Source of the DNA: an uncultured virus (IMG/VR IMGVR_UViG_3300031521_000018)
Lineage: Duplodnaviria; Heunggongvirae; Uroviricota; Caudoviricetes
DNA length: 64,000 nucleotides
Direction: 5' to 3' (one strand)
Virus record (IMG/VR): IMGVR_UViG_3300031521_000018
Coordinates: 1-64,000 of that record
The notes below the pieces were generated by a model. That model was given only the letters and a program-made list of their open reading frames with translations. It was not told where the DNA came from and searched no databases. The translations under genes were made by a program, and so were the position numbers. Shown one piece after another: positions 21,606-48,395 of the stretch (position 1 is its first letter; each line of letters starts with the position of its first letter).

Positions 21606-22434
21606 AGCTTACTAGGTATTTTTTGGGTTTTGTTCCACGTTCAATTTCCTCTTTTTCCAAATTTATTTCCTCTATGTATGACATATAAATGCCTCTTGAG
21701 GATTTATAAATACTTATTTTATGAGAATTAGATTTATCCAATAGTTTAATCATTATATCAAAGCAGTGAATTTCTTTTTCCTCTCTCATTACATCTACCT
21801 CACCAACAGCATATTCCCATTTATTTTCATATGATGCAATTACGAAATTACCATCAACACATTTTAATGTAAATTTGTTGAAATCACCCGTTTTATTTAG
21901 AAGATCTGTGTCCTTATCTATCGCCAACAGTTTTAAAATATTGGTTATGTCCAAGCTTGACAAATTAAACACCATAGAAGAATTTGATACCTCTGAGATA
22001 ACTGTGTCCCATATCTTCGTATTCATATACTGAATATTACTAAATTCACCAAGGGTCAATTTATTTTTTAATTTACCAGATTTAATATTCAGTATATGGG
22101 CTATGAAATTTCCATCTATATCCTCACTGTATTGTATATCTCCACCAACAAAATTATATTCGTTTGCGTTGTATAATTCAAATACTTTTGTTAATTTATT
22201 AACGTCGTTTATTGGAAAATATATATGCTTGTATTGCTCCAACCCCTCGAATATATCATTAATACCAATTTCAACGAATTTAATATAGGTTTTTATTTTT
22301 GCATGTGATTTACATACCAACCTGTCACTCTCAAAATCTATAATTTCTTTTTCCTTAATATTAGTACTAGATAAATATTCAATAAATTTCTTAACGTTTA
22401 ATTTATTAAATTTCAGGGTTTTCAGATTTTCCAT
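21589..22434 (-). CDS. Putative sliding clamp (gp45-like)
   Basis: 281 aa with a two-domain alpha/beta pattern (helix-strands repeated, FNLSSLDITNILKLL..FTLKCVDGNFVI). Size and context are consistent, but no diagnostic motif was seen. Confidence 0.45.
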   Translation of the reverse strand: MENLKTLKFNKLNVKKFIEYLSSTNIKEKEIIDFESDRLVCKSHAKIKTYIKFVEIGINDIFEGLEQYKHIYFPINDVNKLTKVFELYNANEYNFVGGDIQYSEDIDGNFIAHILNIKSGKLKNKLTLGEFSNIQYMNTKIWDTVISEVSNSSMVFNLSSLDITNILKLLAIDKDTDLLNKTGDFNKFTLKCVDGNFVIASYENKWEYAVGEVDVMREEKEIHCFDIMIKLLDKSNSHKISIYKSSRGIYMSYIEEINLEKEEIERGTKPKKYLVSCDVAK

Positions 22435-23020
22435 TTTTTTCGTTTTTTTGTATTAATTCTTTTATTAATTCTTTTTCTTTTTCCTTATTTTTATTCACAA
22501 ATACATTCAAATTTTTCCTACCGTCAGGGTATCTTGATTTCAGTTTAACCATATTGGCTTCCATAACCTCTTCGAAATTAGTACCTACTAATCTCATTAT
22601 ACCAACATAGTAAAATAAATTATCTGAAAGTTCATCAATCATTCTCCATTTCTCATATGGTGCACCGAAATATACGTTTTTCTGCAAAAGACCTAAAACC
22701 TCGTTTGATTCAATGGAATTTCCCATACACATATTAAGTAAATCAAGAATAATTTTATTACCTGATTTATTATTCATTATCTCCTGACCAACATAATTTA
22801 CATATGTTTCTATATAATCATAATCTTTTACAGATGGTAATATTTCAACAGATGCTAATGAAGTCTTGGTAATTATAAGTTCTATACCAAACAACCTTAT
22901 GACTTTAGTTTTATATATAACCAAATTGCTCCCTTTAATCTCAACAGCTAAATTCTTATTTTTACTATATTGGTTTGTGATATCAAGTAATTCTGCTGTG
23001 GTTTTGATAGTATATTTCAT
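22406..23020 (-). CDS. MazG-like nucleotide pyrophosphohydrolase
   Basis: ExxE (ESNE) and ExxD (DELSD) motifs, then FEEVMEANMVKLKSRYPDG, typical of phage MazG-like all-alpha NTP-PPases. Confidence 0.8.
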   Translation of the reverse strand: MKYTIKTTAELLDITNQYSKNKNLAVEIKGSNLVIYKTKVIRLFGIELIITKTSLASVEILPSVKDYDYIETYVNYVGQEIMNNKSGNKIILDLLNMCMGNSIESNEVLGLLQKNVYFGAPYEKWRMIDELSDNLFYYVGIMRLVGTNFEEVMEANMVKLKSRYPDGRKNLNVFVNKNKEKEKELIKELIQKNEKNGKSENPEI

Positions 23021-23064
23021 GTATAACTTTTAATTTTTATATTTATTATGAGTTTTTATTGTCA

Positions 23065-23107
23065 AACATAGATAAAGCCAAGGGTTACCCTTGGCTTTAT
23101 CTATGTT
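23065..23107. terminator. Near-perfect 43-bp palindrome, likely terminator
   Basis: AACATAGATAAAGCCAAGGGT-T-ACCCTTGGCTTTATCTATGTT, downstream of the 23122 ORF. Confidence 0.55.
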
Positions 23108-23121
23108 CAAAATTTGTGTTT

Positions 23122-23760
23122 TTACTTTAAGCTTTCTTCTATTTTGGCTGCATTTTGCTTCTGAGCATCGGCAACGTTTTTAGTAACTACTTTTGTGGGT
23201 TTTGTGGGCTTTACAACAGGTGCTTTGGTTTCCTCTGTCTTAACTGCTTCCACAACAGGTGCTTCCACAACAGGTGCTTCCACAACAGGTGCTTCCACAA
23301 CAGGTGCTTCCACAACAGGTGCTTCCACAACAGGTGCTTCCACAACAGGTGCTTCCACTTCTTCCACAACAGGTGCTTCCACAACAGGTGCTTCCACTTT
23401 TTCCTCCTCAGCAGTTGGAAATTGAACTTCCAAAACCGATATTGTTGGCATTAGTATACCTGTTTTGTTGTTAACAACATAAAATTTACATTTATCTATC
23501 GTCAATAATGTCAGAGCACCCATAAAAAATTGAGTTGTTTTAACATTGTCTTCAAATAAATGACGTAAATTCTTTACAGATTTACCGTTTAATTGCCTTA
23601 CATTAGTAAAGTTTTTTCTGACAATACTTTCTACCTCTGATAATATTTCATCAGATATGTTTTCGTCAAAATTAGGTGTAATGTACAAATCACCAACTTG
23701 TATCGATGAATTGCTAATTTTTGCACGTGACAGTACAAAATTGTTTGCTAGATTTTTCAT
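23122..23760 (-). CDS. Hypothetical late protein with an EAPVV repeat tail
   Basis: 212 aa; TATAAATA upstream; low-complexity EAPVV repeats. Confidence 0.7.
   Translation of the reverse strand: MKNLANNFVLSRAKISNSSIQVGDLYITPNFDENISDEILSEVESIVRKNFTNVRQLNGKSVKNLRHLFEDNVKTTQFFMGALTLLTIDKCKFYVVNNKTGILMPTISVLEVQFPTAEEEKVEAPVVEAPVVEEVEAPVVEAPVVEAPVVEAPVVEAPVVEAPVVEAPVVEAVKTEETKAPVVKPTKPTKVVTKNVADAQKQNAAKIEESLK
23246..23397. repeat. 15-bp coding tandem repeat (GCTTCCACAACAGGT)
   Basis: Seven exact consecutive units plus two more after a short interruption; encodes EAPVV on the minus strand. Confidence 0.95.
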
Positions 23761-23790
23761 TTTTCTAATTTTTAATTTATTTTAATTTAT

Positions 23791-25413
23791 TTATATTGGT
23801 ATCAGTCCCATGAATATTTTTCCTTTATCACAGCATGAATTAAGAAATTTTAAGAATACAAGATTTAACGGTGACATTCTATACATTGGTGGAAATGCAT
23901 CTTCCAACATTGGTGCACTTTCAGTTATGTTAGTATTAATGTCAATAACGGCTTGTGAATCACCTATATATTGAGGTAAATTAAATCCTGTTGGTACAGT
24001 TTTAGAACCTTGGCTCTCCTCTATTAGTTGCTTTCCACCCCTAAACAGTACTTCCCAAGTTGATTTTGTTTTACCATCTACTACCATTACAACAGGTGCT
24101 ATAGCCAAACCATTTATTGTTAGCCAAACTACTATGTTTGTACTTCCGATTGGTATAGTAAGCAAATGAATGTAAATTATAGGTAATTTAACGGGTGCAC
24201 CAACGGGTGTTATAAATCCTACAGTCCAATGATTTGGTAACAATGATATTAAGTTTAAATATGTAGTCCATACCATCCAATAAGTCGGTAGGAATATATT
24301 GTATTCATCTGAATTAATAGGAATATCCTTGAGATTTTCTTTATATTGAGCTTTGTTATTTGTTACCGATTCATAAAATCCTTTATTTGAACTTGTACAA
24401 GGAATAATTGATAATTCATATATTAGTTCATATTTGATTTGATCTAAATCAAACATATCAATTATAGAAAAGTATTCGGATAAGTTTTTTTGTAGTGATG
24501 TGTTAAGAGATTTATAGTACTCAATTATTTCATCATCTGTCTTTAACGTTATACTTATCCCCGAAATTAGTTTTTTATTAGTTATTTCAGAAATATTTCC
24601 ATTAAAATAAGTATTTATAATACCCGATGATAAATTATAAATTAGTGGTTGTGGTAGTAAAGGAGTATTGACAGTTTTGTATAATTCACCAAGTACACCT
24701 AATAAAATATTTTTAAATGTTAGTAACCTTGTGTATATTATAGTTTTTATATCCACAGTTCCATCACCTATATCACTATCAGACAACTTGTTTAAATCTA
24801 CAAAATATTTTATTACATGAGATATATTTGTATTTTGTGTGGTTTTATATTCCTTTTTAATAATTACAGACCTTATCATATCATCAAATATATCATGTAT
24901 GCCATAAGACCTAATTCCTGATTGTAAATGATAATTTTTAATACGTGGAATAAGGCTGTAATAATTATCAGAGTTCAAAGATAAATTAAAACATTGATGT
25001 GATTTGTTGTTTTTTTCAAGTATAGTGTTGTATATTGTTATTTCTATTAAATTTAACAATATTTTTTGTAAAGGTATTAATTGATTTTTATTCAACCTAT
25101 CTAAACTTGCCTTTGAAAGGTTTAAAGCTACAGTTTGTATAATATCTAGACAATTCTTCCTTTGTTCGTCTAAATTTACATCTTTAAGTAACGGTGAATC
25201 AGATAGTATAGAACTTATTATGTCATTTATGCCTTTTACATCTTTTACATTGTTGAATTTGGGTATTACAGGAACACACCCTTGTAATATATCAATAGGT
25301 TCACCATTTTTTGGAATCCTGCAGGTATCTAGTTCCACAACGTTTTTATCAAGGTTAACTAATTCTTGATAAAGGTCTTCGGGTAATATAGATTTTAATA
25401 ATTCGTTATCCAT
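23791..25413 (-). CDS. Hypothetical virion-associated protein with a hydrophobic C-terminal region
   Basis: 540 aa; YWMVWTTYLNLISLLP..IVVWLTINGLAIAPVV; co-transcribed with tail-type genes. Confidence 0.5.
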   Translation of the reverse strand: MDNELLKSILPEDLYQELVNLDKNVVELDTCRIPKNGEPIDILQGCVPVIPKFNNVKDVKGINDIISSILSDSPLLKDVNLDEQRKNCLDIIQTVALNLSKASLDRLNKNQLIPLQKILLNLIEITIYNTILEKNNKSHQCFNLSLNSDNYYSLIPRIKNYHLQSGIRSYGIHDIFDDMIRSVIIKKEYKTTQNTNISHVIKYFVDLNKLSDSDIGDGTVDIKTIIYTRLLTFKNILLGVLGELYKTVNTPLLPQPLIYNLSSGIINTYFNGNISEITNKKLISGISITLKTDDEIIEYYKSLNTSLQKNLSEYFSIIDMFDLDQIKYELIYELSIIPCTSSNKGFYESVTNNKAQYKENLKDIPINSDEYNIFLPTYWMVWTTYLNLISLLPNHWTVGFITPVGAPVKLPIIYIHLLTIPIGSTNIVVWLTINGLAIAPVVMVVDGKTKSTWEVLFRGGKQLIEESQGSKTVPTGFNLPQYIGDSQAVIDINTNITESAPMLEDAFPPMYRMSPLNLVFLKFLNSCCDKGKIFMGLIPI

Positions 25414-25414
25414 A

Positions 25415-25666
25415 TTAATTTATAAGGTCTGTATCTTTATCAACACATATGTTTACTCTAGATTTAATAGTCTTAACACCAACAATCATAAAATCCAAGC
25501 AGCTGTCTATAAGCTTTAATATATCTTGGAGAGTTTGATTATTACTATTTTTTATAATATTGGAAATAGAATTTTTCATTATATTACCTCTATAATCATA
25601 CCCAAGATTTTTAACATTATCTTTTCTATGTTTTAATGACTTATATATAGAATAATCTGAGTTCAT
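25415..25666 (-). CDS. Hypothetical protein
   Basis: 83 aa, tightly coupled in the operon. Confidence 0.6.
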   Translation of the reverse strand: MNSDYSIYKSLKHRKDNVKNLGYDYRGNIMKNSISNIIKNSNNQTLQDILKLIDSCLDFMIVGVKTIKSRVNICVDKDTDLIN

Positions 25667-25667
25667 A

Positions 25668-27296: not shown

Positions 27297-27342
27297 TGAT
27301 TTATTTTATTTAAAGTTATGTTTTTAAATAAAATAAAAATTA

Positions 27343-27876
27343 ATGAAGCCTTTAAAATTATCTGAAAATAATGTTATTATAAAAGTAAGTTCCAAACCTG
27401 TTTTTGAGGCTATGGGTTCTGTGAAGTTAGATCAACTTATAAAGGCTATTAACACAAGGCAATATATTAGTTTTTATTATACCGATAAAACAGGTGATGG
27501 CACTAGCGGTCCAAGGTTTGGTGAACCATATGCCATAGGTTACAGAACAAATAAAAAAGGGGAAACTGTAACATATATGAGATTTTATGTTATATCAGAC
27601 ACATTAAAAGATGATTCCATAACTGATAAATTAGCTAGACACAAATCAAAATCTCAAAAATCTAAAAATCTAAAAACAGGATTTGCAAAAAAGTCGGGTT
27701 GGAGAATGTTTATAGTAGATGATAGGTACATTAAAAATTTATTTCTTACAGGCAAAAAATTTTCAATGTACCGTTCAGGTTATAATGATTCAGGCGATAA
27801 ATTTATAACAACTATAATAGCACAACAACCAAAGTCGAGTTTCCCAAAAGGTGAAAACACGGATACCAATTTTTAA
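27343..27876 (+). CDS. Stand-alone WYL-domain protein
   Basis: LIKAINTRQYISFYY..RFGEPYAIG..GWRMF is the WYL pattern; no HTH; late-type motif upstream. Confidence 0.7.
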   Translation: MKPLKLSENNVIIKVSSKPVFEAMGSVKLDQLIKAINTRQYISFYYTDKTGDGTSGPRFGEPYAIGYRTNKKGETVTYMRFYVISDTLKDDSITDKLARHKSKSQKSKNLKTGFAKKSGWRMFIVDDRYIKNLFLTGKKFSMYRSGYNDSGDKFITTIIAQQPKSSFPKGENTDTNF

Positions 27877-28355
27877 CCATTATTGATTATAATATAATCA
27901 AAGTCTGTATATTCCATAAACAGACTGTAGTCGGCAAAAAGTCTGTCATTTATATTTTCCTCAGACATTCCTCGTTTCAATAATCTTTTGTATATTATAT
28001 CTTCATCTGATTTCACCCAAATTACTGTACATTTATCTCTATCCTCTTTTGTTAGCTGCTTAAGACCATCAGGTGACATTATGAATAAGTTACATTCGTT
28101 GAAGTCCTCCCTTGATGTTCCGTAATATGCACTACCAAAATCAGAGTATTGCAGCATTTCACCATGCTCAATTTTTCTTTTAAAATCGTATTTTGACATA
28201 AATCTATAATCCTCACCATTGATTTCACCATTTCTTGGTAATCTAGAGGTACAAGATATGCCAAATTTAAAATTAAGAGTATACTGAAAGTTTTTCCTTA
28301 AGAAGTCTTTACCCGATGCACCCGCACCTATTAAAATAATTTTTTTACCAAACAT
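27873..28355 (-). CDS. gmk: Guanylate kinase
   Basis: P-loop GAGASGKD, TSRLPRNGEINGEDYRF and YYGT. Confidence 0.9.
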   Translation of the reverse strand: MFGKKIILIGAGASGKDFLRKNFQYTLNFKFGISCTSRLPRNGEINGEDYRFMSKYDFKRKIEHGEMLQYSDFGSAYYGTSREDFNECNLFIMSPDGLKQLTKEDRDKCTVIWVKSDEDIIYKRLLKRGMSEENINDRLFADYSLFMEYTDFDYIIINNG

Positions 28356-28359
28356 GACT

Positions 28360-29373
28360 TTACTGATTTATAAATGAATATTTGGAAACCGCTTCAAAAT
28401 CAGTAACAGAACCTTTGAAATTTTGGAACAACCATTTATCTTTTATATTATTTTGTATTGTTTTCAAATTGTTTTCAAAGTTTCCATTAAATATATGACC
28501 ATCAGAACATAAAAGCAATTGAATGTTGTTGCAGACAGCTTTATCGATTATTTTTTCAATATCCTCTTTATCAATTGCACTTGTTTTCAAATTTGAGTTA
28601 GGACAAAATTCAATTGGTATGCCATTAGAGGCTATAATATCAACAGCAAATTTTGAATACAACAAAAATTGTACACCATGACCTATTCTGTCAATACTTT
28701 TAATTATGTTTTTGAAATTAGTTAACGAATTTCTATCGCTCTCGTCAGGCACATCTTTAATAATTTCACCAAAATGTAAGGTTATTTTAAGACCATTTTC
28801 CTTTATAAATTTGAATGCTTCCTTATAAAATCCGTTTAAAAGGTTGGATGAATAATCTAAATGATACCCCGAAATATCTACTCCTACAATACCAAAATTT
28901 TTGAATTTAACCGCTTTTTCAAATATAATTTTTGTGAGTTCTATGGAAAATGATTGATCTGATTCAATTATCAAACCACATCGCAAGTCTTTGAATATAG
29001 CCTTTGCTTTCTGCAATCCATTACAAGCAGACATTATTATTGTATCCAAATCATATAGACCTTTTTGATTTCTCAAGGCAGGGTTTAGCTTTAATTCAAT
29101 AAGTCTATATCCATGGTTAATATATAAGTCCTCAAGAACATGATAAACAGAAAGTTCTATTGATTGCGGATAAGAACAAATTTCTTGAATCATTTTATAT
29201 CTACCTAAATATCCTGTCAAAGATTTATCCTCATTTGCACCATTAAAAATTGTATCAGAAAATTTGTCATAATCCTGATACTTTTTGATTTTTAATCCTC
29301 TATCATAAGCTATAGAAAACAATGTTTGTGGTAATGTAGAACCACCTAAATGAGTATGGAATTCAGCGTACAT
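28360..29373 (-). CDS. Adenosine/AMP deaminase-family metallohydrolase
   Basis: EFHTHLGGS, GVDISG, TLHFGE, RIGHG, EFCPNSN and SDG (canonical SDD/TDD). Confidence 0.9.
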   Translation of the reverse strand: MYAEFHTHLGGSTLPQTLFSIAYDRGLKIKKYQDYDKFSDTIFNGANEDKSLTGYLGRYKMIQEICSYPQSIELSVYHVLEDLYINHGYRLIELKLNPALRNQKGLYDLDTIIMSACNGLQKAKAIFKDLRCGLIIESDQSFSIELTKIIFEKAVKFKNFGIVGVDISGYHLDYSSNLLNGFYKEAFKFIKENGLKITLHFGEIIKDVPDESDRNSLTNFKNIIKSIDRIGHGVQFLLYSKFAVDIIASNGIPIEFCPNSNLKTSAIDKEDIEKIIDKAVCNNIQLLLCSDGHIFNGNFENNLKTIQNNIKDKWLFQNFKGSVTDFEAVSKYSFINQ

Positions 29374-35183: not shown

Positions 35184-36782
35184 TTATATTAAGATGTCCT
35201 CGACTTTCATCGCTATATTGTCGGTAAGTAAAAACATTGTAGCTACGGAAATAGCATTTTCTATACAATTCCTTATTACTTTTGTTGGGTCGATAATACC
35301 ATCCTCGACAAGGTTTGCTAATTCACCATACATATTAATACCATTATTGTCATCTAATATGTCATCTATAATCAGCTTATCAATATCGGAAATACACAAG
35401 TTGCTTAACAATTTTCTTTTTATTGATTCCGATGCCGACTTAATCAAATTGCCTGAAATTGAATAAGGTGGTAATTGATAAGCAGCCTTTATGTATGATG
35501 CACCCGCACCAACCGATACACCTTCCTCAATAGATGATTTAACGGCAGCTATTGCATCATCAATTCTATCCTTTACCTCATAAATTTCTGTATCGGAATT
35601 ACCACCGATTTTAATCGTAGCTATATTTCCCTTTGCAAAAGATAGCAAATTACGTTTCCATTGAATAGCCTCATTCTCTTCGGGTGAACCTGTTTCAATC
35701 ATAGACTTTATATTTTCCTCTATTTGACAAATTTTTGTATCAAGATTAGGCTTATTAATGTCATATATTTGAATATTTGTTTCATCTTTACTCACTACAA
35801 TTTTTTGAGCAGAGCCAATAAACTTAGAACTGAATTCAGCTAGCTTAGTACCAGACTCAATATAAAAAGGTGTTGCTAATGTAGCGGATGCAATCATTGA
35901 CAAATAATCTTTTCTTCTTTCACCGTAAAATGTTGGTTTTATCAAACATATTTTCATCTTTTGGCTCATATGATTGGCAATCATAGTCTGAACAGCTTCA
36001 CCCTCAATATTCTCACCAATTATAAGTAATGATTTATAATTGGTATTGGCTATACTAAGAATTTTTAACATATCAGAGCCTTTTGAAATGTTGTGGTCTG
36101 TTATAATTATACCACAATCTGTTAGCTCAGAAATCATCTTATTAACATCTGTCATGAACATATAACTAGAATATCCCGAAGCTATTTTAATCCCGCTTTG
36201 TATAGTTATTGATGTTTCAGTTGATGGTGATGGTTCAACCATTATAGTTCCATGTTCATTTCCGAATTTATCATATGCCGATGCAATCAAATCGGATATT
36301 CTAACATCTCCATTTGTAGAAATCATGGCAATGTTTCTAATATCCTTATTTGTTTTTGAAATTATTGAATGATCCTTAATATATTCAATCATCAAATCCT
36401 TTGATTTGTTTAAATCATCACGGAGTTTATGAACATTAAAATCAGGATTTGATTTCAAAAATTCATTTATCTCTTTCATAAGTGCATAAGCAAACACAAC
36501 CGTAGATGTAGTGCCATCACCCGCATTTAATGCCGTTCTCATTGATGATTGCTTGAGCAGGTTACACCCTATGTTTTCCCATTCATTTTCAAGTTCTATA
36601 AATTTAGCAACAGTGACACCATCTTTTGTGGATTGTATGATTCTTTCATTTAAATGCTTGAGTAATACGTTTTTGCCTCCAGGACCTAGTGTAGATGATA
36701 CAATATCACATAATTGTTTTGCACCATAAAGTATCGTATCTCTTGCCTCAGCACCTGTTTTTATTTGTACTTTGTCATTCAT
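35184..36782 (-). CDS. groEL: Chaperonin GroEL-like
   Basis: TLGPGGKNV, TKDGVTVA, AGDGTTS, EVKDRIDDA, EEGVSVGAG and GIIDPTKV; lacks the GGM tail. Confidence 0.95.
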   Translation of the reverse strand: MNDKVQIKTGAEARDTILYGAKQLCDIVSSTLGPGGKNVLLKHLNERIIQSTKDGVTVAKFIELENEWENIGCNLLKQSSMRTALNAGDGTTSTVVFAYALMKEINEFLKSNPDFNVHKLRDDLNKSKDLMIEYIKDHSIISKTNKDIRNIAMISTNGDVRISDLIASAYDKFGNEHGTIMVEPSPSTETSITIQSGIKIASGYSSYMFMTDVNKMISELTDCGIIITDHNISKGSDMLKILSIANTNYKSLLIIGENIEGEAVQTMIANHMSQKMKICLIKPTFYGERRKDYLSMIASATLATPFYIESGTKLAEFSSKFIGSAQKIVVSKDETNIQIYDINKPNLDTKICQIEENIKSMIETGSPEENEAIQWKRNLLSFAKGNIATIKIGGNSDTEIYEVKDRIDDAIAAVKSSIEEGVSVGAGASYIKAAYQLPPYSISGNLIKSASESIKRKLLSNLCISDIDKLIIDDILDDNNGINMYGELANLVEDGIIDPTKVIRNCIENAISVATMFLLTDNIAMKVEDILI

Positions 36783-36867
36783 TTTTTTAAATTTTATATA
36801 TTTTTGTTATGTTAGTATTATGAAAATGATTTAAATTAAAGGAAAGTATATCGTCTGCAGCAGAGGG

Positions 36868-37152
36868 CTATTTTTTGGTTATGATTAATAAAATATCACC
36901 CTCTTCCATAACCCTATATTTTTTGCTTTCGATAGTTAACTGAGTACCTGAAAATCTATTAAACATTACTCTTTTACCAACAACAGTATTTTCACCTACA
37001 CTTTCACCTACACCGACAATTTCACCAAGAGTTTGGTCTGTATCATCAATTTTTATAGCTATCAATCCGCTTTCGGTTTGTTCAATTTGTTCTTCAATTT
37101 TAACAAGTATTCTACTTTTAATTACATCTACTATTAATTTTTCACCTTCCAT
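36868..37152 (-). CDS. groES: Co-chaperonin GroES
   Basis: RILVK..TESGLI..GEIVGVG..VGKRVMFNRFSGT..EEGDIL. Confidence 0.92.
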   Translation of the reverse strand: MEGEKLIVDVIKSRILVKIEEQIEQTESGLIAIKIDDTDQTLGEIVGVGESVGENTVVGKRVMFNRFSGTQLTIESKKYRVMEEGDILLIITKK

Positions 37153-37163: not shown

Positions 37164-38642
37164 TTAAGCTATTAATTTTTTAAGTTCTTCTATATCATGA
37201 GCAATATCATGATTAGCATATTTTGCCTTAACACGCTTTGTAAACAAGTTGTCTATGACAGTTCTAACACATCCATCTTTTTCACTTGTATATACTACAC
37301 CATTGTTAGCACGTATCATAGTGTTTTTATCATATGGTATTTGCTCACCTGTTTTTGTAACAACGGTTGTTTTATCGTCATATGTTTGACCTATATAAGT
37401 ATCAAGACCAACATTTAGGAATTGCATTATGGATGGATAAAGACTTTCGAAGTCATAAATGCCAATGTATTCATATAAGCCTATTGTTGGCTCAACAACA
37501 AAAGCACCCGCATAGCCTTCTTTTATGTTTTCTTCTTTTATAAATACCTTATTGTAAGTTTTGTAATAATAATCACTAAAGATTGATTCTATTATAATTG
37601 AAACCGATGTTCCCAAAAGTAAATCAACCTTTCCAATGTTGGTTATAGTTTGCATCAAGGAAAATATATCGGTTTTCTTGTCAATCATTTCTACAAGAAA
37701 AGCATCAGTTATACCATAAAAGCAAAATTTCTCAAAATCTGTGTCGTATAAATCTTGTAAGTTTCCATTGTATTCAATTTTGGTAACACCCAATACCTCA
37801 TTCGAAATAAACCCTAATGACATAGATGTTTTATACGCAACAGATTGGTCAAAGAATTCAAATATTTGCATATAATCAATAATTGGTCTATGCAATGGTA
37901 AATCTAATATTATTTTATTTTCTTTGTTGTATTTATCAGAAAGCGAATGAGAAAATGTTTTTCCTACAGGTGATATAATTTTTGCATAATCAATACCTGT
38001 TCTTTTACACCTATTAAAATAATATTGTGCATCAAATTTTAAAACATTCCAACCGAATATTACAGACATTTTGCTCATATAGTTTACGGCAAAATCGCAA
38101 TTCATGGAGTATTCATCTTTGTATTGACGGTATTTTAGATTTACTTGTTTAACTATTTTTTTATCCAATATTTTAGATAAATGAGCGTTTAATTTTATTT
38201 CAATTCTTTTTAATTGCTCACCCGTCAATTCCTTCATCCCAAATATAGTACCATTTCCATATTCATCACAAATAGTATGGAGTAATATTCTACCAATAGG
38301 ATTGGATGCCTCGGTATACACACCATTAACAGTTTCTGTTTCTATATCCCAAAACCATTTCTTTGGCTTGTTATCTGAAAATATTTTGTCCTGTAAATGC
38401 TGTGGTAAATTATTTATATATTCGTATTGCCTGTATTTTGTTAGATAATTTTTACGTATCTTTTTTACGGGTCTATCAAATTGAGATGTTATAGTAGGAT
38501 GTTTGTATCTATCATCTAATCCTGCTTCCTCCCAAACAAATTTTTCACTATCTGAAATTGGAATATTAACCAAGTCTATTTCACCATTTTCATTGAAATA
38601 GGAGATAGACATGTCATTAAATATTTGTTTTGAATTTATCAT
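37164..38642 (-). CDS. Family B DNA polymerase, N-terminal half (exonuclease + motif A) of a split gene
   Basis: ExoI WDIETE, ExoII GWNVLKFDAQY, ExoIII YGITDA, YAGAFV and motif A DFESLYPS. It ends in the fingers helix before motif B; no YGDTDS. Confidence 0.9.
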   Translation of the reverse strand: MINSKQIFNDMSISYFNENGEIDLVNIPISDSEKFVWEEAGLDDRYKHPTITSQFDRPVKKIRKNYLTKYRQYEYINNLPQHLQDKIFSDNKPKKWFWDIETETVNGVYTEASNPIGRILLHTICDEYGNGTIFGMKELTGEQLKRIEIKLNAHLSKILDKKIVKQVNLKYRQYKDEYSMNCDFAVNYMSKMSVIFGWNVLKFDAQYYFNRCKRTGIDYAKIISPVGKTFSHSLSDKYNKENKIILDLPLHRPIIDYMQIFEFFDQSVAYKTSMSLGFISNEVLGVTKIEYNGNLQDLYDTDFEKFCFYGITDAFLVEMIDKKTDIFSLMQTITNIGKVDLLLGTSVSIIIESIFSDYYYKTYNKVFIKEENIKEGYAGAFVVEPTIGLYEYIGIYDFESLYPSIMQFLNVGLDTYIGQTYDDKTTVVTKTGEQIPYDKNTMIRANNGVVYTSEKDGCVRTVIDNLFTKRVKAKYANHDIAHDIEELKKLIA

Positions 38643-39499: not shown

Positions 39500-40588
39500 T
39501 CAAGATGCATTGGAAAGCCGATTATTTGTAAAGTGTGATTGATATGATTTTAATGACTTCATAACATCAGATGGCAAAAGTAATTGTTGATTGGTATCAA
39601 AACTATTTCCATACTCTTGCTCAAATGCTTCCTCAGAACCTATGTTGGCTGTTTCCTCTTGTTTCCATTTATCATCTCTACCCTCAACATCAAACCAATC
39701 TACACGTATAGGATTGAAATAATTTTTACCAAGTAATCCATCAGTGTACAATTGCCAAAATAAATTTCTGCCTCTTGCTGTAGATGTAATTATCATCTTT
39801 GCTGTTTTTGACGATGACATTGTTGGAAAAATAGTTTGATAGAATATTTTTAATACCTGTGGGTCAATCAGTGCAAATTCATCACAGTAAAGTATACCGT
39901 TAACAGTAAGACCTGCACCCGCTTTCTCTGTTGCTGTTTCACCTTTTATTGAGCAGCCATTATCATATATTTTCCTCTTTTGATTATCAACACATATACC
40001 AAGTTTCATATAAAATGGCAAATTGTCGTATATTGTATCTATCTTTTCTATAAGTTCTTTAACTTTATCATCGGTTGCCGAAGTACATGCGACACCTTTA
40101 TCATAATTGGTAAGTAAATACCACATTATAAAAATACCTGATGTAATAGAATTATGGCTCAGTATATCATTAGAAAAATAACTCATTTCTCCTGAACCAA
40201 CTGTAACATCAAAAGTAAATTGTCTAGGTAATTTTTCTACTTTTACAACACGTGATATTCCTTGTTTTGTGATTAAAAATGTCTGCCTTGTTACGTTATT
40301 AGCATCAATTATCTGCATATTTGAATCATAAAACAAATGATTTACAGAACACTTTACAAAGCATCCATTTTTAGTAGTTATTTTAAGTATTTCGGCATTT
40401 GTCTTAATATGGACAGCCGATAAATATTGACCACCCTTTATACCGTTTACCAATAAATTATCTTTAGGAATAGAGGAACTAATTATACAGTCTTCCTCAA
40501 CTTTATATTTCCACAGATTATAATTTAAAAATATAACTATTTTTAATATAGCATTTAAAGTTTTTTCCAAAATTTCTAATAGTCCCAT
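39500..40588 (-). CDS. Split-intein C-fragment fused to the terminase large subunit ATPase core
   Basis: Likely start is ATG 40588, 4 nt after the upstream stop. After SHN comes S-ITSG (the Ser of Walker A GKS), Walker B ILYCDEFA, motif III IITSTARG, VDWFDVEGRDDKW and FEQEYG. RQxGK and the nuclease domain are absent. Confidence 0.88.
   Translation of the reverse strand: MGLLEILEKTLNAILKIVIFLNYNLWKYKVEEDCIISSSIPKDNLLVNGIKGGQYLSAVHIKTNAEILKITTKNGCFVKCSVNHLFYDSNMQIIDANNVTRQTFLITKQGISRVVKVEKLPRQFTFDVTVGSGEMSYFSNDILSHNSITSGIFIMWYLLTNYDKGVACTSATDDKVKELIEKIDTIYDNLPFYMKLGICVDNQKRKIYDNGCSIKGETATEKAGAGLTVNGILYCDEFALIDPQVLKIFYQTIFPTMSSSKTAKMIITSTARGRNLFWQLYTDGLLGKNYFNPIRVDWFDVEGRDDKWKQEETANIGSEEAFEQEYGNSFDTNQQLLLPSDVMKSLKSYQSHFTNNRLSNAS
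40151..40588 (-). mobile_element. Atypical (long, 146-aa) IntC of a split intein at TerL Walker A
   Basis: Block B KCSVNHLF, block F FTFDVTV..SYFSNDI, block G LSHN|S; no block A and no endonuclease. Confidence 0.85.
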
Positions 40589-40592
40589 TGTG

Positions 40593-41726
40593 TTAGTCCA
40601 TAAAGCTGCTAAATATATCCTCAGCGTTTTTTTCAACAAGTATTTCTTCGTCTTTAGATGATTCACTTTGAGTGTGAATTTTAAACGATGTTTCATACCT
40701 GTTTCTTTCATTATCTTTGATATTATTTCTTAAATTCTGATTGGGCGATAGAGGTATTAAATCATCAGCTTCAACAACCTCAGAAAGCTCCATTATTAAT
40801 TTTTTCCTATCATTGAAAACAGGTGTATCAGGTATTATAACCTCACCTTCCTCTATTCCTGACTGATTAACAAATTCACCATTAACATAATCTTTCTTGA
40901 GTTTTTTGAAAGATTCCTCGACATCAGACAAGTATTCCCTTTGATATTTACTCAAGGCTAATTGTGACATTTGTATTTTAGACAGTGATTCAATGTTTTT
41001 AGCTGTAGGATTTTTAATTACTTGTTTAAAAAATTTCTTAAGCACAAGCTGCGAAATCATCATTTGAGTATGAATCATTTGTATAGAATTCTCCTCAAAA
41101 TATAATTTATTTTTGAAATACGGAAATTTTTCTATAACACCTTTTTCGATATAAAGTTCAGCTATAGAGCCTAATAAGCTTTTTGCCTCTGTAAGTGCTA
41201 TAGATGATGCCTGTATGTATTTTTCCTCAGCTTGTAATACATCCTCATCATGTTCTTTTTCGTGTTCTTCATCTTCATCTTCATCATCAAATTTGGGTAG
41301 ATCACTGAAATTTGACTTTCTTTTTGGTTGACTTTTTACCAATGATGGGAGATATTGCTCAAATGTCCTTTCAAGTTGTTCAATAACTATATCCTCTACA
41401 TCATCCTCTGTATTTTCTATAACTTCCTTATTTTTGCTCATTAGTTTAGCATATTGTGAATATGCTAAAGCTCTTGAATCAAATAACAAGCTTTTTTCAT
41501 CAGCTAATAAATTACCTGATAAATCCGTGAAATCTATTCTCCATTTGCCCGAATTATCAGTATAAAATTGAGCCGCTTGTCCTTTATCAGGAAAATTAAA
41601 TTTTCGTTTAGATGCTTTAGACCTACCGTTAAATATATTAACAAAATATCCAACCGTGTCAGTTTTATACGGTTGTGATAATACTTGTTCAATAGGTTCT
41701 GTTGGTATTTTAATTATATTTGCCAT
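40593..41726 (-). CDS. Hypothetical helical protein (possible small-terminase-like)
   Basis: 377 aa with an acidic linker and a coiled-coil region; immediately upstream of the TerL fragment. Function is inferred from position only. Confidence 0.4.
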   Translation of the reverse strand: MANIIKIPTEPIEQVLSQPYKTDTVGYFVNIFNGRSKASKRKFNFPDKGQAAQFYTDNSGKWRIDFTDLSGNLLADEKSLLFDSRALAYSQYAKLMSKNKEVIENTEDDVEDIVIEQLERTFEQYLPSLVKSQPKRKSNFSDLPKFDDEDEDEEHEKEHDEDVLQAEEKYIQASSIALTEAKSLLGSIAELYIEKGVIEKFPYFKNKLYFEENSIQMIHTQMMISQLVLKKFFKQVIKNPTAKNIESLSKIQMSQLALSKYQREYLSDVEESFKKLKKDYVNGEFVNQSGIEEGEVIIPDTPVFNDRKKLIMELSEVVEADDLIPLSPNQNLRNNIKDNERNRYETSFKIHTQSESSKDEEILVEKNAEDIFSSFMD

Positions 41727-41731
41727 GAATT

Positions 41732-42526: not shown

Positions 42527-42551
42527 AGCAATTTTTTATTATTTAAATATA

Positions 42552-42588: not shown

Positions 42589-42605
42589 AGTATAATCAAT
42601 AGGTA

Positions 42606-44009
42606 TTATCTTGGAAAGCTAATAAATTCTCCAACCCATTTACCTGTTCCAAGTATTGAAAGTGATACGTTATCAAATTCATCGATAACATCAAAATTGC
42701 TTTCAAGCCACTCAATTACTTTGTGAGTAGTATCAGTTAATTTGGTTTTACCCTCAATCTCCTTATCAAGCCAATTACAGAAATTTAAAGATAGAAAAAT
42801 TTCAGAATCTTTAGATGGTCTGTTATATCTTATTGCATCAACAAGCAATTCTTTTGAGAATGTGGCTACTCTCCTTGGCATAAGAGTAAGCGATGTATAA
42901 ATTGCTTTTTTATCAATCACACCACCATATTGAGCCTCAACCTGTTCCCAAGTAAGTTCTTCCTGTGTTTCGGGTTTTTCCCATCCATTTCTATACCAAT
43001 CGCCAGAATAAGAATCAATTTCGTCATATGGAATATTTGGGTATTTTTCCAAATCAAATCCCGTAAGGAAAATATCCTTTTTGGTTATGACTTTTACCAA
43101 ATAATCTTCATTATCTTCGAAATTAAACAACCTTTCATCAAATCTTGCCTTAACCTCAGATAATGATAGTTCATTTGTAGTATAATATTGAATACCACCT
43201 TTTAAAACCCACTTTTTATTGTTTATTTTAATAGGGAATGTACGCAAGTTAATAAATACGTTACCCGCATAAAATGGTGGAATCATTGCATCATCCATGG
43301 CTGCAGTAATTGAGCAGTTACGTGCCGTTGTGTTACGTTTACTGTATGAAAGTCCACTTGATAATGCAAAGCCCTGAGCAATTTCGAAAAGCCCTGACTG
43401 ACCCGCATCAAGTCTGTCCATAATTTCACGTTCTGTATCACACAAAAAATCCTGTAATTCAGGATATTCATATGCATAAATCCTTTGATCAGGATTTCTC
43501 ATACATTTTTTGGCACGTACAGAACCCGCACCGCTAGCGGTTGTACCTGAGGTAACTGTTCCCTTTTGGCGTTCCTCGTTAACTTTACCCTCGTAATTAC
43601 AAACACCTGATTCAAAATCTCTGTCTTGCTTGGAAATAATCCCCGCCTTGTAATGAATTCTTACCTTGCCACGTGGTATACCTGTAAGTTCAATTTCCTC
43701 AAGCAATCTTTGAGGTTCAAAGGCAGCACCCTGAGCAACATATACTGCATCAAGTTTTTCATGATAAACAGATGATGTAGGAAGTACTTTGAATAAAATA
43801 ATTTTTTCTGTACCATCAGGAAATTTTTCCTCATAATAATGAGATGCATTTTGACCATTGGTTGAAACAGCAAAATTACAATTATTGCTGTATTTTACCA
43901 AATTTGATGCTAAAAGACCCTTTCCACTACTCCCAGCGAACCCATCCATAATGAATGAAATTTTCCCTTCTTTAAAAAAGGGGTTAAAAAGCGTTTTTGA
44001 ATGTGACAT
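42606..44009 (-). CDS. purZ: Adenylosuccinate synthetase family, PurZ-like (2-aminoadenine synthesis candidate)
   Basis: GSSGKG (Ser in place of the PurA GDEGKG Asp), NASH, EIAQGFALS, RTFPIKI, SGDWY, ELTWEQV, TSLTLMPRRVATFS and LNFCNW (NFxN in place of PurA TKLD). Confidence 0.7.
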   Translation of the reverse strand: MSHSKTLFNPFFKEGKISFIMDGFAGSSGKGLLASNLVKYSNNCNFAVSTNGQNASHYYEEKFPDGTEKIILFKVLPTSSVYHEKLDAVYVAQGAAFEPQRLLEEIELTGIPRGKVRIHYKAGIISKQDRDFESGVCNYEGKVNEERQKGTVTSGTTASGAGSVRAKKCMRNPDQRIYAYEYPELQDFLCDTEREIMDRLDAGQSGLFEIAQGFALSSGLSYSKRNTTARNCSITAAMDDAMIPPFYAGNVFINLRTFPIKINNKKWVLKGGIQYYTTNELSLSEVKARFDERLFNFEDNEDYLVKVITKKDIFLTGFDLEKYPNIPYDEIDSYSGDWYRNGWEKPETQEELTWEQVEAQYGGVIDKKAIYTSLTLMPRRVATFSKELLVDAIRYNRPSKDSEIFLSLNFCNWLDKEIEGKTKLTDTTHKVIEWLESNFDVIDEFDNVSLSILGTGKWVGEFISFPR

Positions 44010-44012
44010 ATA

Positions 44013-44378: not shown

Positions 44379-44421
44379 AGCTGTAATTAATAAATGGTTT
44401 AATAATGGTTAATTTTCCTTT

Positions 44422-45552
44422 TTATATATCCAACATTTTCACATTGTCTTTAGATATTTCATATAATTTGTTAAGGTTATTTATAATTTTATCCTTTGTT
44501 ACCGCTGAAATTTGAATTAGCTTCTTATCTATAATCACAGAATCTAATGATGTAACGTATTCTGACATAATATCTTTGATATCATCATTTATATCAAAAT
44601 CAACATTTTCATCAGAATTAGTTATTTCATTCTGTGAATATATTTTACCAACTTTTTGTTCATATTTAAGTGAATAGTAACCTGTAAGAAATTCAGTTAT
44701 CTTTACTGTACTTATTCTATTAAAATCATCAACAAACACGGAAACCCTGTTATTTTTAATTAAATCATTTGCATCGGTAACAGTCATATCCAATAAATCG
44801 GGAAGATATACATTTAAATATTTTGGTGATACATTATTTTCTATATATTTAAATGATTCATCGGCAATATTTATTATCATAATCTGTGGTTTGTTTTCCC
44901 ACTCATTTTTCCTTGTGTGATATGCTGCACCAACATAAACTATATTTTTGTTCTCTTGTGGCTTGTGGATGTGACCGATGATAGCATGCTTATACTTGGA
45001 AAAATGTGACATATTAATAGATTTTTCCTCGGTTACCATAATTCCTTCATGAGAAAATCCCGCTATATCATCATGACCAAACATATAATCAGCGTATTCA
45101 TCGTTTGATATAACCTCAGCTAATCCATCTTTATTTTCAATTGCGGGGATGAATGATACCTTTTTACCGCTTTTTGTTAAAAATCTTGTAGGCTGTCTTA
45201 CAACAATACAGTTACTTATGTATGATAGCACACGATTTGTTGTTATTGTTTGATTAAACTTATCATGATTACCCGTATCAACAACAACAATATTGTGCTC
45301 AGAAATTTTTTCGAACGTATCGAGTATTGAATCTTGTATTTCGGTTGAAATTAATGATCTGTTATCATATACATCACCAACTTGTATTATACCAACATTT
45401 TCAGCACCATATGCTTTATTCAACTTATCAAGAATCGGCAAAATAAATTTTCTAAAATAGTTAAGTGATATTTCTAACTCTTTCAGATCATTGCTATATC
45501 TACCAAAATGTAAATCACCTATAACAATATTTATATCGGGTATTGTAATCAT
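44422..45552 (-). CDS. Mre11/SbcD-like recombination nuclease (gp47-like)
   Basis: Metallophosphoesterase motifs GDLHFG, GDVYD, GNHD, FGH and GHIH. Confidence 0.92.
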   Translation of the reverse strand: MITIPDINIVIGDLHFGRYSNDLKELEISLNYFRKFILPILDKLNKAYGAENVGIIQVGDVYDNRSLISTEIQDSILDTFEKISEHNIVVVDTGNHDKFNQTITTNRVLSYISNCIVVRQPTRFLTKSGKKVSFIPAIENKDGLAEVISNDEYADYMFGHDDIAGFSHEGIMVTEEKSINMSHFSKYKHAIIGHIHKPQENKNIVYVGAAYHTRKNEWENKPQIMIINIADESFKYIENNVSPKYLNVYLPDLLDMTVTDANDLIKNNRVSVFVDDFNRISTVKITEFLTGYYSLKYEQKVGKIYSQNEITNSDENVDFDINDDIKDIMSEYVTSLDSVIIDKKLIQISAVTKDKIINNLNKLYEISKDNVKMLDI

Positions 45553-45651
45553 ATTATTGTTTTATACATTTATATTCACGTTATTACAATAGTATCAAAT
45601 CATGAAAACATAACTTAATTAAGCATATAAACATATAAACGTATAAAAATT

Positions 45652-46089
45652 ATGGACACCCCTGAAAGCACTAAAACAGAAGATAGTAATTTTTTTGACC
45701 CCGAATTGGAAGGTATATTAAAAGCCACTAGTGAGATATCAGTTACAGATAACTCAACAAAGGTAGATAATATAATGTTGAAGCCGAAAGACAGACCTGT
45801 GAGGCAAGAGGGAATAAATATGATTAAATCGGAATTTACAAAAAATACACCAAAGGTTGAAAGCACAATTATAGAAATTTTATCTAGGAAGTCAAAGATT
45901 CCTTTAAAGTCTACAATAAATCTACAGGTTTACGATAAAAAAACATTTAAATTTTTATTAGATTTGTTCGAACAGGATTTAAAGCAAGAGGAAATTATTG
46001 ATATAATAATAAACAATTTGGATATGGAGGATGTTAGAAAATCCATCAAGAGTACTTTGGAGTTTTATTACGGAAGAACATCAAAATAA
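45652..46089 (+). CDS. Hypothetical protein
   Basis: 145-aa ORF. Confidence 0.6.
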   Translation: MDTPESTKTEDSNFFDPELEGILKATSEISVTDNSTKVDNIMLKPKDRPVRQEGINMIKSEFTKNTPKVESTIIEILSRKSKIPLKSTINLQVYDKKTFKFLLDLFEQDLKQEEIIDIIINNLDMEDVRKSIKSTLEFYYGRTSK

Positions 46090-46092
46090 AAT

Positions 46093-46794
46093 TTAAATTT
46101 CACCTGTTTTTATTTTAGCAAGTATTGATTGCCTTATTGATGTTGATAAGCCCTGAGATTTTGTTGCTGAATCAGAGCATTTTTTACTACTTACATTAGC
46201 ACCCAATATAACTTTCCCATCAATTATCTTAAGTTGATCAGATGTTGTCATGTTGGGTGATTTTATATAATCATCTAATGTTGATACCTTACCTGTTTTT
46301 GTATTAATTCCCGCATCATTTATATTGGATATGTCTGATAAAGTAACGCTAGATGGGTTACTTTGTCTTATCAGTTCCATAACACGCTTTTTGTCTTGAA
46401 CATTAATGTTCTTCGCAAATTCTATTTGCGATTTATTCTTTTTCTTCTTTGTTACCTCAGATGATTGAGAATTCACAGCACCAACAGCATCAGAAATATC
46501 AGGCATCATAACAATCATATCAGATGAAATAGAAAATGGATTGCTTATTTCACTATAAAACATCATTATATCGGCAACATTTTGATCTGTATATAATGCA
46601 TATGATACCAAATTTGGCTTACCTTCAAATTCGGGTGATATAATAAAAGTTCCATTATGATTGAAATTAACCGCCTTTTTGCTTGAAAAAATTTGATCTG
46701 TAAAGTCTATAATTTTATCAGCATTAATTTCAATCTCCTGTCTAGTTTCTATTGAGAAATATGTTATTGGTGAAATAGCTTTCTGCGTAACCAT
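46093..46794 (-). CDS. Baseplate wedge protein (gp53-like, LysM-related)
   Basis: EGKPNLVSYALY..DIMMFYSEISNPFSI..IVMMP. Confidence 0.6.
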   Translation of the reverse strand: MVTQKAISPITYFSIETRQEIEINADKIIDFTDQIFSSKKAVNFNHNGTFIISPEFEGKPNLVSYALYTDQNVADIMMFYSEISNPFSISSDMIVMMPDISDAVGAVNSQSSEVTKKKKNKSQIEFAKNINVQDKKRVMELIRQSNPSSVTLSDISNINDAGINTKTGKVSTLDDYIKSPNMTTSDQLKIIDGKVILGANVSSKKCSDSATKSQGLSTSIRQSILAKIKTGEI

Positions 46795-47015
46795 TACAAT
46801 TTTATTTTATTTAAAAATAAAATGATAATAATAAATACAATTAATGATGATAAGAAAAATATATATGAGGTCTTGAAAGCTTTATTTATTTTGTATAATT
46901 CTTTATATGGTATATTATGAAATAAATCATTATAAAGAATTATAGAACCCAAAACAAACGTGGATATAAATGGTATAAATATAAAAATTCCTAACAATAA
47001 TATAATAATAATCAT
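46794..47015 (-). CDS. Small membrane protein
   Basis: 73 aa with two hydrophobic helices. Confidence 0.5.
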   Translation of the reverse strand: MIIIILLLGIFIFIPFISTFVLGSIILYNDLFHNIPYKELYKINKAFKTSYIFFLSSLIVFIIIILFLNKIKL

Positions 47016-47027
47016 AATCAGTTGATA

Positions 47028-48395
47028 TTAAAATGTTTTATAATCATTAAGGTCAAAGTTTATAAGTTTATCATACATTATCTTATTAATTACACAATCA
47101 GAATAAAGCTTAATAATAAAATTTCTGTAGCTAAGTTTATCTGTCAACTTTGTATCTTTCAGACGATTGAATATTGTTTCATAAGCGTCGGGTAATCCCG
47201 CATTTTTCATGAATAGCTGCAGATATTCAGCTGACATTTCATAATGATTATCTAATTCTTTGGTTATAAATTCTTCATTTAATGATGTTTTAGACAAGCC
47301 TCTACGTAAAGAATTTATGGCAACATCAAACATTGCGAAACTTTCAAATACCATTCTAATAGCAACAGAATCAGTCAGGTCACGTTGTAATCTTGATTTC
47401 GAAAATTTCTTGATATAAAATGAAAAATCAGATTCCATCTTTTCCATTATACCCTCACAATTTTCGAAATCTATTGGATTAGTTTTTTGAACCATCGTTG
47501 ATGAACCAATTTGACCATCATCTTTACTTTGATACAAATATCCTATTGAACAATAATGCCATAAATCTCGGCATAAATCAATACATATTGATGCAAGTTG
47601 TAAATATTCTTTAAGTAAATCAACCAAATATACCCAATTATCAACTTGAGTAGTATTCTCAGAACGTTTTAATGACATATTTACACTCAAGTTCAATGAT
47701 GTAAACCCATTAATAAATTTATCCATTAATTCATCTATGTTGGTAATACCTATTAGTTTCATAGATGAATTATTACCAACAGCACCACCAAACTTAACAC
47801 TTGGTTGTATATTAGTCAGATTGGTGAGTAAAGATGAGATTCTACTATTATAGTTTTTGTATATTAATTTTGAATTTATTGGTACAGCGGGTTGTCCGTG
47901 AGTGAATCCAATCATTAATACAGAATTTTCACAAAATACTTTATGTAACGAGTCCAATAACATTGTAATGTTAAATATCAATTCATTAGAAATATTTGAA
48001 AAAAGTGAATTTGATGATAGGCTTACTATATCTTGACTTGTAAGACCAAAATGTATGTATGATATAATTTTTATACCCTCAAGTTCTGATTTTGATGTGT
48101 AAAAATCAGAACTTTGAGCAACAGATTTTACATAATATTCAACAGCTTTTATATCATGCTTTGTTATTTTTTCAAAAGCATTAAATTTTTCTAAGTTGTT
48201 AAAAAGGTGTGAATATAGCTCATTAAGTTGTGAATTACTTGGTGGTATACCATTAATTTCACAAAGAAAGAGAAACCATTGAAATTCAGAATAAATTTTT
48301 GTGTTTATCTGATTCTCGTATGAACATAGTTCACGCATAACACCATCCTTACGGTATCTACTATCTATTGGGGATATTGATTTGAATTTTGACAT
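47028..48395 (-). CDS. purB: Adenylosuccinate lyase
   Basis: SPIDSRY, TKHDIKAVEY, IHFGLTSQD, THGQPAVP, KFGGAVGN, GSSTMVQKTNPIDFEN and SRLQRDLTDS. Confidence 0.95.
   Translation of the reverse strand: MSKFKSISPIDSRYRKDGVMRELCSYENQINTKIYSEFQWFLFLCEINGIPPSNSQLNELYSHLFNNLEKFNAFEKITKHDIKAVEYYVKSVAQSSDFYTSKSELEGIKIISYIHFGLTSQDIVSLSSNSLFSNISNELIFNITMLLDSLHKVFCENSVLMIGFTHGQPAVPINSKLIYKNYNSRISSLLTNLTNIQPSVKFGGAVGNNSSMKLIGITNIDELMDKFINGFTSLNLSVNMSLKRSENTTQVDNWVYLVDLLKEYLQLASICIDLCRDLWHYCSIGYLYQSKDDGQIGSSTMVQKTNPIDFENCEGIMEKMESDFSFYIKKFSKSRLQRDLTDSVAIRMVFESFAMFDVAINSLRRGLSKTSLNEEFITKELDNHYEMSAEYLQLFMKNAGLPDAYETIFNRLKDTKLTDKLSYRNFIIKLYSDCVINKIMYDKLINFDLNDYKTF

Follow-up and report, generated by a model that had tools for sequence, protein, structure and literature searches.

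Does a phage that encodes a PurZ-like synthetase together with its own adenylosuccinate lyase and guanylate kinase make Z-nucleotides for its own genome? The question is raised by the uncultured phage IMGVR_UViG_3300031521_000018, a viral contig of 125,373 bp (labelled G000; 29.4% guanine + cytosine (GC), CheckV completeness 83%), of which bases 1-64,000 form the stretch analysed here (the window). An initial annotation, made from the letters alone, had proposed a dispersed but apparently complete Z-nucleotide supply chain. We consider that the gene set probably equips a T4-like family with a pathway to Z-nucleotides. Z is 2-aminoadenine, which small phages put in place of adenine with the aid of PurZ, and here too it would replace adenine wholly or partly in the DNA. 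The pathway is more self-supplied than the published one, but it is not complete. The five genes named initially, those for a MazG-like enzyme, a guanylate kinase, PurZ, PurB and a class II ribonucleotide reductase, are intact open reading frames (ORFs) where they had been placed, and their positions confirm that the pathway genes are dispersed. An adenosine-deaminase-family gene, 4 bp upstream of the guanylate kinase gene (gmk), had been overlooked. The genes concerned, with lengths in amino acids (aa), are:

22406..23020, minus strand: MazG-family nucleoside triphosphate pyrophosphohydrolase, 204 aa (PF03819, E 2.4e-5)
27873..28355, minus strand: guanylate-kinase-family enzyme (Gmk), 160 aa (PF00625, E 2.1e-21)
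28360..29373, minus strand: adenosine-deaminase-family enzyme (ADA), 337 aa (PF00962, E 1.2e-27)
37164..38642, minus strand: family-B DNA polymerase encoded in two pieces, here the N-terminal one (PF00136; other half at genome 75674-76891)
42606..44009, minus strand: long-form, putatively ATP-type PurZ, 467 aa (best PDB match 6fm1, phiVC8 PurZ, E 1.8e-13)
47028..48395, minus strand: E. coli-type adenylosuccinate lyase PurB, 455 aa (PRK09285, E 6e-81)
53428..55437, plus strand: ribonucleotide reductase of class II (B12), RTPR-like (highest NCBIfam score with TIGR02505 RTPR: 218 bits, cut-off 340)

The synthetase

Compared with three characterised PurZ proteins and E. coli PurA, the synthetase has residues of the PurZ and not of the PurA type, in agreement with its initial description as PurZ-like. 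The comparison is based on 75 clade sequences, namely 74 homologues taken from the 120 listed (of 308 found) and the protein of Flavobacterium phage MaF61. At the position of the catalytic Asp13 of PurA, 75/75 of them have Ser (Vp S14; S27 in the window protein), and the position of PurA R303 is occupied by Leu or Met, again in all 75 (M377 in the window protein). The adenine-donor motif NFxN is present in the window protein as N409, F410, Cys and N412, corresponding to Vp N294, F295 and N297, which are conserved in 75, 75 and 72 of the 75 sequences. W252 is kept in 75/75, Y244 in 70/75, P233 in 74/75 and T262 in 74/75 (T372 in the window protein). The scored residues are named as PurZ-specific in the available text of bioRxiv 2025.10.22.683976 and PMC8342488.

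The predicted model has a mean local confidence (pLDDT) of 95, and a fold search with it ranks phiVC8 PurZ (6fm1) first, PurZ0 (7vf6) eighth and bacterial PurA lower. In the tree, 26 large-phage sequences form one branch (SH-aLRT branch support 94) beside 11 canonical PurZ (96), while two PurZ0 and PurA are separate from both; this was a quick IQ-TREE run of 40 rows with a midpoint root, the careful search not having finished. Thus the NFxN motif and the separate branch set the protein apart from PurZ0, and the replacement of Asp13, R303 and the GTP motif sets it apart from PurA. By its residues the synthetase appears to be an ATP-type PurZ, on a large-phage branch of its own that is sister to canonical PurZ.

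The guanylate kinase

In guanylate kinases, a guanine-reading Glu contacts the N1-H and the 2-amino group of the base. Alignments with PDB structures place Q69 of the window enzyme at this Glu (yeast E69, mouse E72) and S95 at yeast D100/mouse D103. Among 14 clade copies the Glu position holds Gln in ten, Val in three and Glu in one, whereas Gln is found in none of the four PurZ-less phage controls (Glu, Glu, Thr and Thr), a small set drawn from 103 records that includes the closest control with 38% identity. The sole copy with Glu belongs to the relative G012, which has a further paralogue, of the Gln type, next to MazG. These two kinases of G012 (22795-23247 and 124101-124418) form a natural pair for a specificity comparison.

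Z, with its unprotonated N1 and its 2-amino group, could be satisfied by the amide of Gln, and the window enzyme is likely a dZMP kinase. A mouse E72Q/D103N double mutant, attributed to Stolworthy and Black (2001), is reportedly a functional adenylate kinase, going by the title of that work. The initial annotation had suggested downstream enzymes specialised for deoxy-Z substrates. The Glu-to-Gln change, a new observation here, is the best support for this idea; Gln fits a specialisation for 6-amino purines.

The lyase and the MazG-family enzyme

The equivalents of the PurB catalytic and substrate residues H91, H171, Q247, S295, K301, N303 and R335 are kept in 5/5 clade copies aligned; the protein scores below the NCBIfam cut-offs. 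In the MazG-family enzyme the acidic metal motifs align with those of S-2L MazZ. The guanine residues I56 and D60 of MazZ are not kept, Phe and Gly standing in those columns, and BLASTP of the window protein against S-2L MazZ gave no match. The assignment of this enzyme as MazZ therefore lacks support; it is a candidate for the step from dGTP (or dATP/dGTP) to the deoxynucleoside monophosphate.

Probable removal of adenine nucleotides

The gene set described initially contained no arm for adenine removal. A candidate arm of this kind is present, in the form of the deaminase next to gmk and of an HD hydrolase gene on an overlapping contig. Profile searches found no HD hydrolase gene in the 125,373-bp contig, and an exact-pattern search to extend it gave 0 matches. 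The overlapping contig G040 is 100% identical to the final 12,373 bases of the contig and terminates in an 87% match to window positions 3-768. It encodes the capsid and sheath block and an HD gene, which was detected with a clade-built HD profile about 3.5 kb before the end of G040 and thus beyond the left edge of the window. Due to these two overlaps, this phage, or else a strain very close to it, appears to carry a candidate HD gene for dATP removal. The clade HD protein and DatZ can be aligned at the HD core; where DatZ has W20/I22 or Y20/T-S22, the clade protein has Tyr and Thr/Asn/Leu/Ala.

In the alignment, the zinc and catalytic residues of ADA are intact (H6, H8, H200, E203, H232 and D291), and Gly replaces both the Asp that follows the HxH motif in E. 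coli Add and the second Asp of the DD motif. The predicted fold is a barrel with a TM-score of 0.74-0.82 to ADA-family structures; neither fold nor profile searches could decide between ADA and ADAL/MAPDA. For the phage ADA no match was obtained among 50,697 GenBank phage records. Of 11 ADA loci, six lie in records with PurZ, four in tested fragments (5-28% complete) without PurZ and one in a fragment of the present phage, a count that is biased because most of the sequences behind the query came from PurZ phages. The cellular family nearest to the phage ADA is widespread among genomes of Gaiellales and Thermoleophilia (an estimated 2000 or so stretches), and 80 loci of this bacterial subfamily showed no conserved nucleotide-metabolism neighbour.

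ADA is likely a sink for adenine nucleosides or nucleotides. That it replaces DatZ as the only dATP sink is highly improbable. This had been suggested by Pfam HD_3, which finds no HD gene in the ADA carriers G001, G002 and G010, and was largely refuted by the more sensitive clade-built profile, which detects HD in G001, G002, G009, G012, G014, G037 and G040; three of the four complete ADA carriers have both genes. It is more likely that ADA acts beside HD and sends adenine products to hypoxanthine and, via host salvage, to guanine.

Co-occurrence in relatives

The initial annotation had proposed a check of whether the genes co-occur with purZ in related phages. We searched 39 records, among them ten complete clade genomes (G001, G002, G003-G007, G009, G010 and MaF61); as G003-G007 have the same size and the same gene order around purZ, these amount to about six lineages. 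PurB is found in 8/10 genomes (4/6 lineages), Gmk in 9/10 (5/6), MazG at E <= 0.01 in 8/10 (all except G009 and G010; 4/6), the YfbR-like HD in 9/10 (all except G010; 5/6) and ADA in 4/10 (G001, G002, G009 and G010; 4/6). The adjacency of ADA and gmk is conserved in G001. In contrast, none of eight small canonical PurZ phages has PurB, Gmk or ADA, while all eight have HD. PurB and Gmk thus travel with PurZ in this clade more than expected by chance, and the lack of co-occurrence that the initial annotation had named among its grounds for refutation was not observed. A close negative control is lacking, since an IMG/VR search based on the capsid for PurZ-less close relatives returned 15 loci and no new complete genome without PurZ.

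Of the chain described as apparently complete, PurZ, PurB and Gmk are indeed the phage's own. The completeness does not hold: profile searches found no Ndk gene in the 125,373-bp contig, and Ndk occurs in 0/10 complete relatives (0/6 lineages).

Polymerase, reductase and restriction-site footprint

Family B is the only replicative polymerase type found in the contig. A screen of 22 records detected it in 9; none of the seven small PurZ phages in the screen yielded it. The gene is split into two distant parts here and in G001, G002, G003 and G017, and is a single gene in MaF61, G009 and G014. The class II ribonucleotide reductase had been counted as a member of the pathway, which is not borne out: the reductase annotated in MaF61 is of class I, with alpha and beta subunits. 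The enzyme serves the general supply of deoxynucleoside triphosphates and is not specific to the module.

The avoidance of palindromes (4-bp and gapped) offers an indirect view of the DNA chemistry. In the contig, 7/12 palindromes composed of G and C only occur at less than a quarter of expectation, and 0/36 of those that specify A or T do so. The corresponding values are 7/12 and 0/36 in MaF61 and 5/12 and 1/36 in G001. MaF61 has retained the G/C-only site of HhaI. Among PurZ-less controls, G/C-only palindromes fall below this level in 2/12 cases in FCL-2, 1/8 in phiST, 1/9 in PAU, 0/9 in Lak and 0/12 in MA9V-1. The partial loci of the clade members G010, G013, G018, G021 and G025 show no palindrome avoidance. 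This pattern fits a modification of A, without being diagnostic for it. The four G/C-only 4-bp palindromes are nearly gone from the contig (1 site against 195 expected), and therefore restriction enzymes with G/C-only sites would still cut the phage DNA. That G and C are unmodified is the firmer reading of this footprint, and it argues against a deoxyinosine (dI) genome.

By eye, several sites of BstYI, BsmAI, HpyAV and BspCNI are among the most depleted words that specify A. According to Table S1 of PMC12944874, these enzymes cut dZ DNA, and HinfI, HindIII and PstI are blocked by dZ. The HinfI site is not depleted in the contig, and neither are many other dZ-sensitive sites.

Proposed route and alternatives

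From the genes, their residues, folds, tree positions and co-occurrence we infer the following route, with all of its activities and substrates and with Z in the DNA. The MazG-type enzyme would supply dGMP, which the long-form PurZ would join to aspartate at the expense of ATP or dATP. Release of fumarate by the phage PurB would give dZMP, and the Glu-to-Gln kinase would convert dZMP to dZDP. Because no phage Ndk was found, a host kinase would make dZTP, and because no other type of replicative polymerase was found, the split family-B polymerase would have to incorporate it. The YfbR-like HD hydrolase and the deaminase would likely drain adenine deoxynucleotides, the deaminase converting adenine products to hypoxanthine derivatives that host salvage could return to the guanine pool. 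This return would matter because full substitution draws every purine, half of all bases, from the guanine pool.

Several observations weigh against this route. The position of Vp F12 is Ala in 55/75 clade members including the window protein (A25), so that the substrate pocket differs from that of canonical PurZ; Phe stands there in 11/75, MaF61 among them, and for Y21, the S-2L counterpart of F12, the available text of PMC8342488 names backbone contacts alone. The NCBIfam PurZ model NF038379 gives the synthetase only 84 bits against a cut-off of 300, yet it is the best-scoring family. The clade HD is a distant YfbR-like type and not a close orthologue of DatZ, MazG is also present in the PurZ-less phage phiST, PurB is absent from G002 and G010, and Gmk is absent from G010. 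A DpoZ-type (family-A) polymerase was not found in the 125-kb contig, the G040 extension lying outside the Pfam scan. The variable region encodes a DPPY-type N6/N4 DNA methyltransferase (genome 115913-116617, L004:2913-3617), which has no match in G001. DPPY-type methyltransferases are usually adenine methylases, and the gene weighs mildly against full substitution. The PurZ-less phage pT24 shows a palindrome purge similar to that of the contig (5/11 G/C-only against 1/36), and two known Z phages purge weakly (2/12 G/C-only each). In the literature consulted in part, DpoZ is family A throughout; S-2L likewise lacks DpoZ according to the available text of bioRxiv 2025.10.22.683976, which also reports Z-modified contigs to be GC-richer, while the present genome has 29% GC.

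Some of these points would equally suit a synthetase whose product is another 2-aminopurine nucleotide or one with further modifications, or one that yields Z at only a low fraction of positions, such that the DNA is modified without being canonical ZTGC. The change of F12 to Ala and an insertion of about 70 residues near the substrate loop of the window PurZ speak for this, as do the family-B polymerase and the methyltransferase, and the Dam-type site is still under-represented in the contig (0.29). We nevertheless regard it as unlikely. The conserved PurB with intact catalytic residues implies that the succinyl intermediate is cleaved to a plain 6-amino product, and in phiVC8, which is a true Z phage, the Dam-type site is rarer still (0.03). 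A deoxyinosine variant, in which Z replaces A and deaminase-made deoxyinosine stands in for G, on the model of the Campylobacter Firehammerviruses, would agree with a deaminase gene that lies directly upstream of the kinase gene and remains there in G001; dI genomes exist, as cited in the available text of PMC8713573. Such a double swap is the least credible of the alternatives, given the near-absence of G/C-only 4-bp palindromes described above, the presence of ADA in only 4/10 complete genomes and a Gln kinase that would suit a 6-amino base rather than inosine.

The purine nucleotide cycle consists of three activities, those of deaminase, synthetase and lyase, and the contig encodes candidates for all of them. 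The initial annotation had offered such a cycle or a salvage set as an alternative that raises dATP for an AT-rich genome; fumarate would be another possible product, and the DNA would then be ordinary. The low GC content would agree with this, and the Glu-to-Gln kinase would also suit (d)AMP. However, Ser at the position of the catalytic Asp13 in all clade sequences makes this explanation quite improbable, the GTP motif and R303 of PurA being likewise replaced in PurZ fashion in 75/75. Furthermore, ADA is missing from 6/10 complete genomes, and the HD hydrolase in 9/10 points to the removal of nucleotides and not to a boost.

Returning to the Z-nucleotide pathway, we tentatively extend it to a bolder claim, which we rate as somewhat less probable than not: that a T4-like, Bacteroidota-type family has fully Z genomes and replicates them with a family-B polymerase, that it possesses a third PurZ branch, a natural Gln-type dZMP kinase, its own lyase and a deaminase that recycles adenine into the supply from guanine to Z, and that MaF61 is an unrecognised Z phage.

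Genome context and host

All 24 listed runs that contain the stretch are peat metagenomes (DNA), and six of them may be its source. The contig encodes a T4-like portal, an intein-bearing terminase, the split family-B polymerase, GroES/GroEL, NAD ligase, ThyX and dUTPase. For the capsid of G001, a close relative, the best match is in Flavobacterium phage MaF61, followed by PAU and by Prevotella, Tenacibaculum and Chryseobacterium phages, and the host is therefore likely a member of the Bacteroidota.

Terminase pieces with intein-like domains are dispersed over the genome (window 39500-40711, 18012-18848 and 62056-62715; genome 76990-77496), and three of them correspond to the single terminase gene of MaF61. 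GroEL/GroES genes, LPD11 and InPase polyvalent-protein domains and a radical SAM gene lie at window 35184-37152 and 10912-14049, L003:2329-2892 and L002:11640-12536. A 2H phosphoesterase that matches anti-CBASS Acb1 (PF23474, 30.9 bits, cut-off 27) is encoded at genome 104042-104581 (L003:5042-5581) and is kept in G001. ThyX is found here (L004:11691-12329), and G001 has instead, at 74557-75732, a gene matching the MaF61 thymidylate synthase. An ORF of 212 aa at window 23122-23760 contains short Val/Glu/Ala/Pro repeats in tandem. Runs of small ORFs at genome 77493-78748 and 119378-121234 share a near-identical Lys-rich N-terminal start, likewise in G001, which is possibly a capsid-targeting signal.

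Significance

If the proposed pathway is real, a T4-type replisome would operate on Z-DNA. The trait would then reach into a new virus class, and a family-B Z polymerase would be at hand. For Z-DNA made in E. coli, 29-61% Z is reported in the available text of PMC12944874. Steps supplied by the host may limit this production, and a dedicated dZMP kinase and lyase would therefore be useful tools. The cultured phage MaF61 has the same genes and allows a direct chemical test. Interest is tempered by the fact that PurB is already annotated in records of PurZ0 phages.

Comparison with known systems

In their available text, bioRxiv 2025.10.22.683976, PMC12884076, PMC8342488 and PMC12783734 describe Z genomes in sipho- and podoviruses with a family-A DpoZ or PrimPol and with host lyase and kinases; the lyase step, or the lyase and kinase steps, are assigned to the host in PMC12884076, PMC12783734 and bioRxiv 2025.10.22.683976. 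The accessible part of PMC12884076 contains no mention of PurB, deaminase, Gmk, jumbo or myovir. A literature search linking PurZ, adenosine deaminase and phages, confined to papers outside subscription, found nothing.

With the Z-cluster PurZ-DatZ-MazZ(-DpoZ) of vibriophage phiVC8, cyanophage S-2L and Acinetobacter phage SH-Ab 15497 the present phage has in common a PurZ with the residues and fold of the ATP type, and also a MazG-fold enzyme and a hydrolase of the HD superfamily. It differs from these phages as a T4-like myovirus of about 170 kb with dispersed genes, a family-B polymerase and an extra deaminase. Its PurZ of 467 aa lies on the sister branch, its PurB and Gmk are its own (0/8 in small PurZ phages), and its HD and MazG are not close orthologues of DatZ and MazZ. 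The PurZ0 actinophages, represented by Gordonia phages Ghobes and Archimedes and Streptomyces phage Hiyaa, resemble it in one respect: GenBank annotates a PurB-like lyase in all three, along with a synthetase in Ghobes and Hiyaa. Such a lyase is also annotated in Gordonia phages Frizzle and Sapo and Streptomyces phages Spocter, Galactica and Keanu. However, PurZ0 has no NFxN motif and branches apart in the tree, the PurZ0 actinophages use DutZ and DmtZ, with DNA polymerase I in Ghobes and Archimedes, and their PurB is of another type, which the window PurB query did not match.

At the level of single enzymes, the phage ADA shares the barrel fold and the intact zinc and catalytic residues with Add/ADA1 and ADAL/MAPDA and lacks the two Asp residues of E. 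coli Add. The phage Gmk resembles the mouse E72Q/D103N mutant in its fold, in its phosphate-binding Arg and Tyr and in the same two altered positions (Q69 and S95), the substitution in the phage being natural and known here by sequence.

A further close system is Flavobacterium phage MaF61 (PQ858689). Its GenBank record annotates the synthetase, the lyase and the kinase; the main text of PMC13269007, the paper on this phage, does not mention purZ or adenylosuccinate, and its supplement with ORF functions may bear on this point. MaF61 is a cultured myovirus of 168 kb with a PurZ of the same branch (35.5% identity), PurB, a Gln-type Gmk, MazG, HD and PolB, and it differs from the present phage in having no ADA and a class I ribonucleotide reductase.

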